A DNA stretch of 4,254 nucleotides from the IMG/VR virus record IMGVR_UViG_2537561712_000020; one strand, written 5' to 3'. Made by a program: the position numbers and the translations under genes. This stretch comes from a virus (taxonomy: Duplodnaviria; Heunggongvirae; Uroviricota; Caudoviricetes). This document shows positions 563 through 3,909 of the stretch, piece by piece. Each line of letters starts with the position of its first letter. Within the stretch, counting starts at the first letter, position 1. The notes under the pieces were generated by a model. It saw only the letters and a list, made by a program, of their open reading frames with translations, did not search any database and was not told the DNA's origin.

Positions 563-1024
563 TCAGACAAAACCGGCCGCCTTCCGGCGCTCATATTCCT
601 GTTTCAGCAATTCAATTGGCGTTGGCCCTGGCGGGCGTTTGGGTGCTGCCAGTTGTCGCCGGACTGGCGGAACACTGAGGCCATTACCAACATGCTTTGC
701 CCATTTCGTCAGCTGCCTTTCCACAAGCCGTTTTAACTCCCCTTCGGTCATCTGGCGCTCAATCCCCTTTGAACGCATCTCGAGGCAAATGTGGTACAGC
801 ACCGGCTGTGGCCACGGGTATTTATCACTCCCGTCGTACCGCCAGGATTCATTCCTCCAGCGACGGTACTCCTCCATCACGGCATCCACCGTCAGGCCAA
901 ATGGATTTGCCCCGCTCTCCGAAATCAACGCCACAAACTCAGCCAGATCCGGAGGCCACGTTTCACCCGCCCGGCAGCGGTCCATGCACTGACGGCAGAC
1001 CTGCCGGATTTGCTGTTCAGTCAT
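563..1024 (-). CDS. Replication protein P-like (putative replicative-helicase loader); start codon uncertain
   Basis: ORF-track frame 563..1228. The C-terminal two-thirds resemble lambda P as I recall it (EQQIRQV, YPW motif, [17 protein letters not shown] near the C-terminus). The start is placed at ATG 1024-1022 because on the minus strand it forms ATGACTGA with the TGA stop (1019-1017) of the upstream initiator gene, a classic coupling arrangement. Alternative in-frame starts are ATG 1105-1103 (GGGA about 5 nt upstream) and ATG 1228-1226, which would overlap the upstream gene by 88 or 212 nt. Confidence 0.6.
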
Positions 1025-2057
1025 CGCGCCAATCTGAGCAATCCAGAGCTTCGAAGGTGCGGCCCCGTTCTTCTGGGTCCAGCGGTTCGAATACACCTCC
1101 CCCATGAGTTCCCACAGCTTCCAGGCCGTTTCCGTTGCTGATAAATCCGTTTTCACGTTCCCACTGTTCACGTGCTGCCCGAATTTCCTGAACTGCCCGT
1201 GATGCGGTGCCACCTGGTGCTGCTGCATGGTTTACCCCTTTGCTGACTGGTTTAACCTGCGCCCTGACGTGATTTACGTGACGGGCGAATTTCTGCTCCC
1301 ACTGAATCTGCGTAAACACTTTCCCCTCCGCTGCCCAGTAGTCCCGGAAGGCGGCAAGTTCAGCAGGTGTAAATTCTGTCTCCGGCAAAGCCATCCCCCA
1401 CAACGCAGCCCGTCGTCGAAAATCCCGTGACGGATACCAGCTATCGCTCATCGGGAATTTTCCGATGGGTTCGCTCAGGCCATACAGGAATACAGGGGGG
1501 GCTGCCTGTAACGACAAAACTTCCTGCTCACTGGTCGGAGCACTCTCGCGTGCGTTATGTGTGGGGTTTAGATCTTTGGGTTCCTTTGGGTTCCGTGATC
1601 CGTTTTTGGGTGTCTTTGATGGAAAATTTGGGTGTCTTTGGTTATTTTCCATGCAGCTAAGAGTTCTGTTTTTGGGTCTGTTTTGTGCTGAAACATAACC
1701 ATTTTCGGTACTGTTTTTATTAACAGCACCAATTTTACCCACCTTTAAAGACTCCCGTTTTTGGGTGTATTCAGGCTCGGCAACACTTTCTTCTACACCG
1801 ATAAGTCGGTACACCACAATTTGCTTTGTTCTGCCTTTTCTCTCACCGGTATCAACAATTAACCCAATCTCCATCAGGTGTCGTAAGCTGTCCTGCACAG
1901 TCTTTTTGTTCAGTTCCGTTACTTCTGCCAGTGCAGATACAGACGGGTATGCACACAAATCGGCACCGCACATATCAGCAAGCCAGGTCAATACTGACTT
2001 ACTGGATGAACTGCCGGTTTTCACCTTTTTAGCCCATCGTAGTGCATCGATACTCAT
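1017..2057 (-). CDS. Phage replication initiator / replisome organizer (lambda O analogue): N-terminal HTH DNA-binding domain, repeat-encoded Pro/Lys-rich linker, C-terminal DnaT-like region
   Basis: ORF-track frame 1017..2132. Start preferred at ATG 2057-2055 (MSIDALRWAKK...), preceded by AGGGGGG; the ATG at 2132 has no comparable signal. The N-terminus (KSVLTWLADMCGADLCAYPSVSALAEVTELNKKTVQDSLRHLMEIGLI) matches the pattern of replisome-organizer N-terminal HTH domains. The middle is low-complexity (PKNGSRNPKEPKDLNP) and is encoded by the repeat array. The C-terminal part (FTPAELAAFRDYWAAEGKVFTQIQWEQKFARHV) resembles DnaT-type C-terminal domains from memory. Overlaps the YdaT-like stop by 29 nt. 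Confidence 0.75.
   Translation of the reverse strand: MSIDALRWAKKVKTGSSSSKSVLTWLADMCGADLCAYPSVSALAEVTELNKKTVQDSLRHLMEIGLIVDTGERKGRTKQIVVYRLIGVEESVAEPEYTQKRESLKVGKIGAVNKNSTENGYVSAQNRPKNRTLSCMENNQRHPNFPSKTPKNGSRNPKEPKDLNPTHNARESAPTSEQEVLSLQAAPPVFLYGLSEPIGKFPMSDSWYPSRDFRRRAALWGMALPETEFTPAELAAFRDYWAAEGKVFTQIQWEQKFARHVNHVRAQVKPVSKGVNHAAAPGGTASRAVQEIRAAREQWERENGFISNGNGLEAVGTHGGGVFEPLDPEERGRTFEALDCSDWRDD
1564..1776. repeat. Phased direct-repeat (iteron-like) array plus AT-rich patch inside the initiator gene; candidate origin of replication
   Basis: Plus-strand TTTGGGT at starts 1575, 1585, 1605, 1627, 1671 and 1760, with spacings of 10, 20, 22, 44 and 89 bp. An exact 14-mer TTTGGGTGTCTTTG occurs at 1605-1618 and 1627-1640; related units are at 1669-1685 and 1757-1770. 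Positions 1690-1750 are about 68 percent AT. In lambda the origin lies inside gene O with iterons followed by an AT-rich segment. Confidence 0.6.
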
Positions 2058-2580
2058 ACGCCCCCCTGGCAGACATTTGTTTATCTGCAAAGTAATATTG
2101 GTATTGCTGACGATACGCGTGCTTGAAAGCAATAGCTTTTTCTATAAGCTCGTCAGTCTCACGTTCCACAACAACTGGATCCGCAAAAAGCAGCCCGGAC
2201 TCCACCACATCGCCATATTCTTTGTTTAACCCGGCGATCATGTACGTAATGCTTTTTCCGTCAGTAATTTCACAATACAATCTGAAATCGCTGATCCGGA
2301 TAGCCTCCATAATTGCCGGAATCAGCGCCGTGAATTTGTCACGCTTATCTCTGGTGTCGATAGCTTTCCAGCGTTCGAATATCTTCACCCGGTTAACGCC
2401 CAGCGCCCGTTGATCAACCTCGCCATCATTAAACGTGACGCGTTGAACATCGATGTTCGGGCGTTCTTTCAGAGCCCAGAATGCTTCCGTGATTAATATC
2501 GTCGCCTGCTCCTGTGTCATTCCTGGTCGGCATACCCAGGTATCCAGAGCCTCACAAACCTGTTCAGTGGTGATTTTCAT
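2029..2580 (-). CDS. YdaT-family protein (proposed CII-like regulator; earlier described as a prophage toxin)
   Basis: 182-codon ORF with ATG at 2580-2578. N-terminus MKITTEQVCEAL and the internal segment KFTALIPAIMEAI resemble Rac-prophage YdaT as I recall it. Lies immediately downstream of the Cro-like gene (17-nt overlap), the conserved ydaS-ydaT arrangement. Family assignment is from memory, not a search. Confidence 0.65.
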   Translation of the reverse strand: MKITTEQVCEALDTWVCRPGMTQEQATILITEAFWALKERPNIDVQRVTFNDGEVDQRALGVNRVKIFERWKAIDTRDKRDKFTALIPAIMEAIRISDFRLYCEITDGKSITYMIAGLNKEYGDVVESGLLFADPVVVERETDELIEKAIAFKHAYRQQYQYYFADKQMSARGAYEYRCTTMG

Positions 2581-2791
2581 TGTTCAACCGCCCCGCCCGC
2601 TTTGCCTTACGATATTCGTCATAAACTTTGGGGTCGTACTGAAGTTCCCCGCCGGATGCCTCTTGCAGGCGCATCGCGCGACCTTCAGGAACCAGTTCCC
2701 CCCATGCAGCAACGCTTGCCAGCCTAACTCCTGCGACATTGGCAAGCTTTGTTTTGCTGCCAAAAAACGCTATAGCATCAATTTTCAACAT
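2564..2791 (-). CDS. dicC: Cro-like HTH regulator of the DicC/YdaS family
   Basis: 75 aa; ATG at 2791-2789, AAGGG about 7 nt upstream. HTH-like segment GSKTKLANVAGVRLASVAAW. C-terminal half (LVPEGRAMRLQEASGGELQYDPKVYDEYRK...RLNNENH) matches my recollection of E. coli DicC. Divergent from the repressor gene across a 76-bp operator region. Confidence 0.8.
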   Translation of the reverse strand: MLKIDAIAFFGSKTKLANVAGVRLASVAAWGELVPEGRAMRLQEASGGELQYDPKVYDEYRKAKRAGRLNNENHH

Positions 2792-2867
2792 ATCGAAACC
2801 CTTAGATTTTCCTAAGGAAACTAGATCGTAGAGAAACCTAAGTCAAGAAAAATTAGAATTACCTAAT
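2792..2867. promoter_or_regulatory. Divergent control region with two operator-like palindromes (O1 2800-2817, O2 2852-2867) and back-to-back promoter candidates
   Basis: O1 is CCTTAG-ATTTTC-CTAAGG (perfect 6-bp arms). O2 is ATTAG-AATTAC-CTAAT. Minus-strand promoter candidate for the Cro-like gene: -35 TTGACT (plus 2841-2846), 17-bp spacer, -10 TAGTTT (plus 2818-2823), abutting O1. Plus-strand -10 candidate TAGAAT (2854-2859) lies inside O2 and ends 8 nt before the repressor ATG. Confidence 0.6.
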
Positions 2868-3275
2868 ATGAAAAACGAAACCTTCGGTGCTCGCCTCTTA
2901 TACAGGCGAAAAAAATTAAAACTGTCTCAGGCCGCATTAGGTAAGCTGGTCAAAGTGGCTCACGTAACAATTTCTCAATGGGAAAGAGATGAAACACAGC
3001 CAGCGGGGAAGAGATTATTCGCACTGAGCCAGGCGCTTCAGTGCTCGCCGACTTGGCTTCTTTTTGGAGATGAAGATAAGCAACCAGGCGAACCGATCCC
3101 AGATAATCAGCCAGTCAATCTGACAGAAGATCAAAAAGAGTTGCTTCAACTGTTCGACGCACTGCCTGAGTCAGAGCAAAAGGCTCTGTTGTCAGAGATG
3201 CGTGCTCGAGTTGAGAATTTCAACAAACTTTTTGAAGAACTACTCAAAGCTCGCAAAAGAAGCGCAAATAAATAA
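2868..3275 (+). CDS. dicA: DicA-like HTH (XRE-family) repressor; CI analogue with no S24 peptidase domain
   Basis: 135 aa. HTH segment LSQAALGKLVKVAHVTISQWERDE. Segments LFALSQALQCSPTWLLFGDEDKQP and ALPESEQKALLSEMRARVENFNKLFEELLKARKR match E. coli DicA as I remember it, including the 135-aa length. No Shine-Dalgarno sequence upstream of the ATG. Confidence 0.88.
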   Translation: MKNETFGARLLYRRKKLKLSQAALGKLVKVAHVTISQWERDETQPAGKRLFALSQALQCSPTWLLFGDEDKQPGEPIPDNQPVNLTEDQKELLQLFDALPESEQKALLSEMRARVENFNKLFEELLKARKRSANK

Positions 3276-3373
3276 CCCCCCTTTTTTTCGCAACTCTCTG
3301 TAATAAAAAGCACAAACTTTCAAATACTTGTGTTTTTTACATCAAGAAGCTTAGGTTTTTCTACACAAAAAGC

Positions 3374-3403
3374 TTGACCATAACTCTTAGGCTATTCTAA
3401 ATT
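3374..3403 (+). promoter_or_regulatory. Candidate rightward early promoter with embedded operator-like palindrome O3 (3386-3401)
   Basis: -35 TTGACC (3374-3379), 18-bp spacer, -10 TAAATT (3398-3403). O3 is CTTAG-GCTATT-CTAAA, the third copy of the TTAG-N6-CTAA core, sitting between the -35 and -10. Confidence 0.4.
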
Positions 3404-3616
3404 CTACTCATCAAGACACCGCACGGTGTTCTCAGCAAACAGTTCCGCTACCCGGCGTTAAGGGGAAGCAGAGGATTTCTCAGTGGGCGAGTCAAACATC
3501 AGAATGGAAGGCGTCCAGGGATCAGCAAAGAAACAGCGATGGCGCTTTATATTGATATCAGCGCCATTGCCGGACAGGTAAGAGTTATCAGAGCGGTAAC
3601 TAAGCGGTATGCGCCT

Positions 3617-3817
3617 TTACTTCAGAAAGTCTCTGGTGAGTGCACCGAAGATATTGTCAACGATTTCGTCATCGAACTGCGAGGACTCATCTTCAGTTAC
3701 AAGGTGACCACAATTTTTGCAGATGGCTCCCGCGAAACTGTCAGAGCCCTGCGGCTTAAAGGATGTGTCAAAGACTTCGCCACCACATTCTGGGCAAGAA
3801 AACTTGATTGTATTCAT
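3617..3817 (-). CDS. Small zinc-ribbon protein (CxxC-N21-CxxC) with acidic C-terminal tail; function unknown
   Basis: 66 aa from ATG 3817-3815: MNTIKFSCPECGGEVFDTSFKPQGSDSFAGAICKNCGHLVTEDESSQFDDEIVDNIFGALTRDFLK. GAGAGGAAA lies 8 nt upstream of this ATG; the TTG at 3823 used by the ORF track is too close to the SD. Codon usage is ordinary. The overlapping plus-strand 99-aa ORF (3539..3838) has no SD and 7 of its 8 Arg codons are AGA/CGG/CGA, so I treat that one as the antisense shadow. Confidence 0.6.
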   Translation of the reverse strand: MNTIKFSCPECGGEVFDTSFKPQGSDSFAGAICKNCGHLVTEDESSQFDDEIVDNIFGALTRDFLK

Positions 3818-3909
3818 AACCAATTTCCTCTCGAGTAACAGACCCCTCAGAGGATACCACCTCGCCTGACGTGGTTAAAAGCAGGCAACGCTAACCACAA
3901 GGAGCCGAC

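Follow-up and report, generated by a model that had tools for sequence, protein, structure and literature searches.

The three-operator layout of the phage P22 immC region was known before the 1988 description of Qin. The P22 GenBank record annotates OR1-OR3, PR, PRM and OL/PL, with OR2 given as an operator of the C2 repressor, and it has the RM transcript starting 4 nt ahead of the c2 start codon. The layout of Qin in Escherichia coli K-12 was described in 1988 (Bejar et al., as cited in PMC10448788): its dicC-dicA region holds Oc (TTGTTAGTCATAACTAACAA), a degenerate Om (TTAACAAAAACATA) and Oa (TTAGCATTAGCTAA), and its dicBp carries TTAGCTATAGCATA and TTAGTCATGGCTAA around TTGACC. K-12 DicA occupies Oc in vivo, and binding is lost when a single A of CTAA is replaced by C; from this site DicA represses dicC and is required for transcription of its own gene. 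Om and Oa, each taken alone, are reportedly unbound by DicA (data not shown), the Cnu-H-NS complex antagonises DicA at this locus, and the dicC start was mapped by 5′ RACE to a place equivalent to the start predicted here (all PMC3441716). Reg-Seq recovers a DicA site on dicCp, which in a later study is annotated at -8 to +12 and is selected against on plasmids.

The ChIP-seq motif of DicC is the palindrome TT(A/C/T)G...C(G/A/T)AA; the strongest binding falls on the protein's own promoter region, with sites on either side of dicA inferred by the authors, induction of DicC strongly represses dicA, and YjdC is reported as a regulator of DicA targets when DicA is absent (PMC11430063). Overexpression of dicC in O157:H7 likewise lowers dicA expression (PMC6915034). 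DicA and DicC form a bistable switch in which the antirepressor Rem relieves DicA independently of RecA (PMC10448788). Among the broader surveys, the main text of a ChIP compendium paper does not mention either protein, and a genomic SELEX paper only lists them.

We analysed a window of 4,254 nt, meaning the whole stretch of DNA at hand. Its 1-kb core is 100% identical with many E. coli O157:H7 chromosomes and is found, at lower identity, in 2526 of 5426 complete E. coli genomes, while PPompW prophages match the whole window at 97% identity and carry dicA and dicC annotations on the same genes. Judged by its sequence, the window is the immunity region of a lambdoid prophage of E. coli O157:H7. 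In strain TR01, a DnaT-like O gene, a lambda-P-like gene, a YdaT-family gene and a Cro/CI-family gene lie on one side of the switch, and the HTH repressor, ydfC, dicB, an exonuclease, an excisionase and an integrase lie on the other. The PR-like promoter serves a dicC-ydaT-O-P operon, whose second gene encodes a product that matches PHROG 163, a CII-like transcriptional activator (E = 3e-40). Several dicBF loci occur per O157:H7 strain, on different prophages (PMC5069750). The DicF RNA was detected between ydfC and dicB of the same prophage (L001) at 43.5 bits (E = 8e-8), slightly below the gathering score and with the E-value-threshold Rfam scan only, the gathering-threshold scan having returned sok alone; the E-value-threshold scan of the window itself gave no match.

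The two genes flanking the divergent region, which had been picked out as repressor-like and Cro-like, match the DicA and DicC families over their full length and encode a CI-type repressor and a protein of the P22_Cro fold, whose DNA-binding domains are homologous to those of P22 C2 and P22 Cro. The 135-aa repressor matches the NCBIfam DicA model NF007257 from residue 1 to 135 of 135 (241.6 bits, cut-off 101) and shares 63% identity with K-12 DicA. Its residues 2-69 resemble the N-terminal domain of P22 C2 (PDB 1adr/2r1j, E = 1e-21), and the match ends at residue 69. Pfam found only helix-turn-helix domains in this protein, HTH_3 being N-terminal, and no S24 peptidase (LexA-like autocleavage) domain; K-12 DicA shows the same lack of a LexA-like domain when compared with the P22 repressor (PMC10448788). 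The 75-aa Cro-like product matches NCBIfam DicC NF007282 from residue 1 to 75 of 75 (167.6 bits, cut-off 130), shares 83% identity with K-12 DicC and is assigned to Pfam P22_Cro, with P22 Cro (PDB 1rzs) as a structural match (E = 6e-7).

We show that TTAGNNNNNNCTAA has exactly three matches in the window, namely the cores of O1, O2 and the OL1-like site (Table 1). The original prediction had counted three such cores, all next to predicted promoters, and had expected about 0.06 by chance; both statements agree with our scan, in which the third core lies on the dicBp/PL-like promoter and 200 dinucleotide-preserving shuffles gave a mean of 0.04 matches, the same order of magnitude, with 0/200 reaching three. 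Over 13 kb of the same prophage (L001) there were no exact matches beyond these three, and in related prophages the half-sites are conserved. When one mismatch was allowed, exactly two more sites appeared, GTAGAGAAACCTAA at Om and TTAGGTTTTTCTAC at the OL2-like position, with local base composition predicting about 0.019 such sites in the gap between O1 and O2 and about 0.036 in the second interval. The divergent region therefore holds three sites and the downstream promoter two.

Other candidate signals were also examined. Direct SOS control of the switch was rejected, the sole perfect LexA box (CTGT-N8-ACAG, 1711-1726) being in the replication-origin region, at a distance from the switch, and none being near the operators. 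The YdaT-type inverted repeat follows the pattern TTGATT-N6-AATCAA, for which we obtained 4 weak matches against 2.4 expected, a non-significant excess.

Table 1 Genes and predicted regulatory sites of the switch region (window coordinates).
Feature	Position	Core	Strand	Evidence
YdaT-family/CII-like gene, second in rightward-type operon	2029..2580		-	Pfam YdaT_toxin; PHROG 163
DicC-family Cro-like regulator gene, 75 aa	2564..2791		-	NF007282; Pfam P22_Cro; PDB 1rzs
Predicted operator O1 (= Oc of Qin, OR1 of P22)	2800..2817	2802-2815		exact motif; perfect palindrome; collinearity
PR-like promoter, TTGACT-17-TAGTTT	2818..2846		-	hexamer reading; conserved -35
Predicted middle operator Om (= OR2 of P22)	2826..2843	2828-2841		7/8 half-site bases; conservation; collinearity
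PRM-like maintenance promoter candidate, GAGAAA-17-TAGAAT	2831..2859		+	hexamer reading; position equivalent to P22 PRM
Predicted operator O2 (= Oa of Qin, OR3 of P22)	2851..2868	2853-2866		exact motif; palindrome; collinearity
DicA-family repressor gene, 135 aa	2868..3275		+	NF007257; K-12 DicA identity; P22 C2 match
Predicted upstream operator, OL2-like	3349..3366	3351-3364		TTAG-GTTTTT-CTAC, 7/8
dicBp/PL-like promoter, TTGACC-18-TAAATT	3374..3403		+	promoter scan; aligns with K-12 dicBp and P22 PL
Predicted promoter-proximal operator, OL1-like	3385..3402	3387-3400		exact match; TTAG-GCTATT-CTAA

In the divergent region of 76 bp, direct reading of the sequence confirmed that O1 and O2 are perfect palindromes where the original prediction had placed them. 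O1 is CCTTAGATTTTCCTAAGG (CCTTAG-ATTTTC-CTAAGG), with perfect 6-nt arms; O2, at 2852-2867, is ATTAGAATTACCTAAT, with perfect 5-nt arms around the core TTAG-AATTAC-CTAA, which stops 1 nt short of the repressor ATG. Between them, the Om core GTAG-AGAAAC-CTAA keeps 7 of the 8 half-site bases and adjoins AGTCAAG exactly as P22 OR2 does. The site centres (2808.5, 2834.5 and 2859.5) are spaced 26 and 25 bp, each site measuring 14-18 bp, and the common form of the three is TTAGR-N4-YCTAA. A seven-way alignment placed O1, the middle site and O2 collinear with P22 OR1, OR2 and OR3, respectively.

The minus-strand promoter that had been proposed beside O1 was located there, as was the plus-strand -10 TAGAAT within O2 (2854-2859), the -35 of the latter, GAGAAA, being weak. 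The -10 of the PR-like promoter abuts O1, so a start some 7 nt downstream, predicted at about position 2811, would fall within O1. Its -35 (AGTCAA on the plus strand) is kept in all relatives and in P22, and its TAGTTT agrees with TATAAT at 3 of 6 positions. The two promoters are divergent, as claimed, but they are not back-to-back: they are interdigitated, with each -35 inside the spacer of the other, and their predicted starts are about 54 bp apart. The lambda PR and PRM starts are about 82 bp apart. Neither divergent promoter was called by a consensus promoter scan of 2500-3600 (below threshold), which did call the dicBp-like promoter; both divergent promoters were assigned by manual hexamer reading and homology. 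No Shine-Dalgarno sequence was found between O2 and the ATG in any relative compared.

At the downstream promoter, the OL1-like operator sits between the -35 and the -10, and TTAGGTTTTTCTAC lies 36 nt upstream of it (35-36 nt in relatives) and aligns with the P22 OL region, such that the pair flanks the -35. The OL1-like site is kept in all relatives, whereas the bases leading to it from the -35 drift. These two are the only sites with at most one mismatch near the leftward-type promoter, and no site with two mismatches was found in 3276-3350. Downstream of this promoter, in the same prophage, lie ydfC, DicF and dicB. The predicted fold of the leader RNA after the dicBp-like promoter was no more stable than those of shuffled sequences (z = -0.43).

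We collected 99 loci encoding DicA relatives from species-representative genomes and viral contigs, which reduced to 47 distinct upstream regions, and found that across these the half-sites are kept while the spacers drift. In the 38 distinct upstream regions of the TTAG type, that is, those of repressors with the helix HV[ST][IV]SQWE, the geometry is tightly held (O1-O2 49-52 bp, O1-middle site 24-26 bp, O2 stopping 1-2 nt before the ATG), and the N6 spacers vary widely (ATTTTC, GTTTTT, GTTTAC, TCATAA, CCATGG, ACTTTT, GTATAT). Among 18 distinct close relatives of the window subtype, only 1 of 24 half-site columns is variable compared with 17 of 41 spacer and linker columns (Fisher p = 0.0012), and the half-sites of O2 are invariant while its spacer is variable in 10/18. 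Furthermore, the operator sequence that we predict changes with the recognition helix of the adjacent repressor, and the direction of this evidence is clear: TTAG is followed by a pyrimidine in 44/44 half-sites with the helix HVSVSQWE and by a purine in 64/68 with HVTISQWE, counts that refer to distinct sites and not to independent evolutionary events. Relatives with the helix SSVSVFKWE carry ATAAC-N4-GTTAT at the corresponding positions, a perfect middle site included.

Taken together, these observations indicate that the palindromes are the operators of a DicA/DicC-type, P22-like immC switch in an O157:H7 lambdoid prophage, a reading to which we give a probability of roughly 0.8. The original prediction that they serve a divergent repressor/Cro switch is very probably right, given the gene families, the homology and the conservation. 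What we observed directly are the sequences and positions, the homology of proteins and layout, and the conservation pattern. The least probable of the competing accounts is that the motifs are a coincidence of AT-rich promoter sequence (TAGAAT, TTGACT flanks) with no operator role. A -10 candidate does lie in O2, and the middle site does adjoin a -35 with its right half, but promoter hexamers do not occupy both arms of O1 or of the 3387 site, both arms are conserved in relatives with different spacers, and three matches never arose in the 200 shuffles. It is also very improbable that host factors (H-NS/Cnu, or YjdC) are the main binders at an AT-rich acquired promoter region. The G+C content of the intergenic region is 32%, and both the antagonism of Cnu-H-NS towards DicA at the K-12 locus and the reported regulation of DicA targets by YjdC without DicA would suit such a view; against it, where the neighbouring repressor has a different recognition helix the half-sites differ too, DicA-dependent repression in K-12 is lost through one base change in the half-site, and exact 4-6-4 palindromes with freely varying spacers are typical targets of dimeric helix-turn-helix proteins and not of H-NS.

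The original prediction had described a two-site arrangement in place of a three-site OR, and this part is not supported by the sequence, an imperfect middle site being present (2828-2841) where Qin has Om and P22 has OR2. We regard as unlikely a strict two-site switch, with O1 (for the repressor, on the Cro promoter) and O2 (for Cro, on the repressor promoter) as its sole working sites and the 7/8 match between them either decayed or a reflection of conservation around the -35. K-12 DicA bound Oc and neither Om nor Oa alone, yet a weak site that depends on cooperative binding is expected to fail when assayed singly. Several relatives lack a TTAG-like left half in the middle site, the degenerate forms being CGCG in E. 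ruysiae and Citrobacter and TTAA...CATA in Qin; in more distant relatives of other specificities, by contrast, near-perfect palindromes occupy the middle position (L014, ATAACAAAAGTTAT; L016/L018, ACTTA-N8-TAAGT). The right half, CTAA, runs directly into the -35 AGTCAA, both being conserved, and because it overlaps this conserved neighbourhood, part of its conservation could be promoter-related. However, neither GTAG nor CTAA changes in the 18 close relatives, in which 7 of the 12 columns of the adjoining linker do, and the site stands at the place of P22 OR2, an annotated C2 operator. There is thus evidence that the putative middle site is under selection in this allele, though it is seemingly inactive in K-12.

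How the DicA/DicC-type switch would work can be outlined by carrying over the pairing of proteins with sites, the start sites, the activation step and the induction route from experiments in K-12 and P22. A dimer of the 135-aa repressor would bind through its P22-C2-like helix-turn-helix, with O1 (about -6 to +12 of the Cro-side promoter) as its strongest site, and would from there block dicC, the ydaT/CII-like gene and the O/P genes. Repressor at O1 would also favour the weak, overlapping repressor promoter, which is expected to yield a nearly leaderless transcript as in P22 c2. Because the promoters are interdigitated, shutting down the strong one on the Cro side should leave the weak one of the repressor free to fire, and such relief of promoter competition may contribute to what was seen as "activation" of dicA in K-12. 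O2 would cover the -10, the start and the first ATG base of the repressor gene, so that its occupation by the Cro-like protein, or by excess repressor, might switch the gene off. The DicC-like protein would recognise the same sites as the repressor, and in turning the repressor gene off from O2 it would make the switch bistable. The middle site probably provides cooperative or auxiliary occupancy, the least certain step of this scheme. Repressor on 3351-3364 and 3387-3400 would keep the PL/dicBp-like promoter, and with it the dicF-dicB cell-division-inhibitor operon, silent. Given that the repressor carries no LexA-like domain, induction would be expected to proceed via an antirepressor (Rem in Qin), noise or stress, and not via RecA cleavage.

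It is conceivable, if somewhat doubtful, that the window-type repressor has an operator dialect of its own within the DicA family. The pattern is (c)cTTAGr...yCTAAg(g) here vs tgTTAGy...rCTAAca in Qin, a difference that goes with 2-3 residue changes lying within and just ahead of the recognition helix (VAHVTIS vs ISHVSVS). Were this the case, DicA-type prophages that share one O157:H7 genome might be heteroimmune, or only partly cross-regulated, despite their common TTAG core; the locus would offer a compact natural system for one-base shifts in helix-turn-helix specificity, and it would bear on the joint control of DicF and DicB by co-resident prophages, with respect to cell division and EHEC virulence. 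Apart from the dialect, the annotation gains predicted operators and promoters through which an O157:H7 prophage would keep its replication genes and its dicF-dicB operon silent. Such control sites help the design of reporter and derepression experiments, since cell division, phage resistance and the expression of EHEC virulence genes are all influenced by DicF and DicB. The comparative gain is a clear case of covariation between operator and recognition helix within one repressor family.

Compared with lambda, the locus shares a tripartite operator between divergent repressor and cro genes, a weak maintenance promoter, and, in prospect, a nearly leaderless repressor mRNA and bistable logic (general knowledge and PMC10448788); it differs in its unrelated operator sequence, its interdigitated promoters and a repressor that has no cleavable C-terminal domain. 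Here as in P22, AGTCAAG (the -35 of PR) directly adjoins the middle site, the -10 of the maintenance promoter falls within O2/OR3, which borders on the repressor ATG, an operator is placed between the -35 and the -10 of a PL-type promoter TTGACC...TAAATT, and the operators fit an 18-bp frame, of which the P22 repressor leaves the central 4 bp uncontacted (PMC4267663). The half-site is TTAGR here and TTAAG in P22, whose OR sites read ATTAAAG.., ACTAAAG.. and ATTTAAG.., and the P22 consensus is not matched. The P22 repressor is a two-domain, RecA-cleavable protein of 216 aa, whereas the one here has 135 aa, with a C-terminal part of about 65 aa and no S24 domain, and two left operators were detected here against the three (OL1-OL3) annotated in P22.

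The closest counterpart is Qin, with which the locus shares full-length members of the same gene families in divergent arrangement, the TTAG-N6-CTAA core, and three divergent-region positions in the same spacing and register, Oc lying over the dicC start and Oa beside the dicA ATG; two sites around the downstream -35 and a dicF-dicB operon beyond it are likewise common to both. The two differ in the repressor, with only 63% identity, and in operator detail, the sites reading ccTTAGr...yCTAAgg here and tgTTAGy...rCTAAca in Qin; the middle site keeps 7/8 half-site bases where Qin Om (TTAACAAAAACATA) keeps 6/8, and the switch is surrounded by ydaT, O/P, exonuclease, excisionase and integrase genes, whereas Qin is a short remnant. 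The locus is, in sum, an ordinary allele of the known DicA/DicC switch, with a layout already described for Qin and P22.

The half-sites of the operators (TTAG-N6-CTAA palindromes) at the loci encoding DicA relatives (L002-L101) vary in the bases that border their TTAG core. Loci of the type of Qin, the K-12 cryptic prophage, whose repressors carry the helix ISHVSVSQWE, have a pyrimidine directly after TTAG, and VAHVTISQWE loci have a purine there, while the base ahead of TTAG is C in the subtype of the window and G in the others. From sequence comparison, the bases bordering TTAG may act as specificity determinants within one repressor family. In all relatives, as in the window (2853-2870), only 1-2 nt separate the last operator from the repressor ATG, no Shine-Dalgarno sequence precedes this ATG in the window or at any related locus, and the P22 record annotates the RM transcript as starting 4 nt upstream of the c2 ATG. 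The maintenance transcript of the repressor gene is therefore probably near-leaderless.

E. coli genomes contain up to four matches each to the 1-kb core region of the window, and O157:H7 records contain two to three; several DicA-type switches thus occur in one cell. Cross-regulation among them is possible. Multiple dicBF copies have been reported in Sakai and EDL933 (PMC5069750). DicA-type loci (L005, L011 and L012) were also found on short MAG contigs labelled Collinsella, Bacillota and Veillonella parvula, which are most likely mis-binned enterobacterial DNA; the sequence of L005 is practically that of Qin in K-12.

Further features of the prophage (window, or L001, 13 kb of the same prophage in strain TR01).
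Feature	Location	Strand	Remark
O-like replication gene	window 1017-2132	-	
Iteron-like repeats	window 1560-1790		TTTGGGT(G/T)(T/C), six copies
LexA-box-like match	window 1711-1726		CTGTTTTTATTAACAG, perfect
YdaT-family gene	window 2029-2580 (L001 5531-6081)	-	frameshifted pseudogene in RefSeq (TR01)
Leader	window 3409-3465		CATCAAGACACCGCACGGTGTTCTCAGCAAACAGTTCCGCTACCCGGCGTTAAGGGG
Predicted 99-aa ORF	window 3539-3838	+	PHROG 21318 match, full length
Predicted 68-aa ORF	window 3617-3823	-	CxxC...CxxC zinc-ribbon-like matches, all below Pfam thresholds
hokD, sok antitoxin RNA, Paa adhesin gene	L001 1188-2437		sok, 103.9 bits
DicF copy	L001 8606-8655		43.5 bits

Within the O-like replication gene, the iteron-like repeats are followed by an AT-rich stretch, and the region resembles a replication origin of the lambda type, lying inside the gene for its initiator. 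The LexA-box-like sequence inside it may be a chance match. A few kb past the replication genes, the same prophage carries hokD/sok and the Paa gene. As the 183-aa YdaT-family ORF of the window aligns across nearly the full PHROG 163 CII-like profile, its designation as a pseudogene may be an annotation artefact. Because the DicF copy scores below the Rfam gathering score of 48, a default Rfam scan misses it. The 99-aa and 68-aa predicted ORFs overlap on opposite strands downstream of the dicBp-like promoter.

The leader 3' of this promoter is near-identical in K-12 Qin and in E. ruysiae, and the flanking DNA is different. It contains the hairpin ACACCG-CA-CGGTGT, and when the leader RNA was folded against shuffled sequences its stability did not exceed theirs. 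The P22 nutL (boxA) region aligns with the leader, which may be what is left of a nutL site or may be a conserved leader element of another kind.
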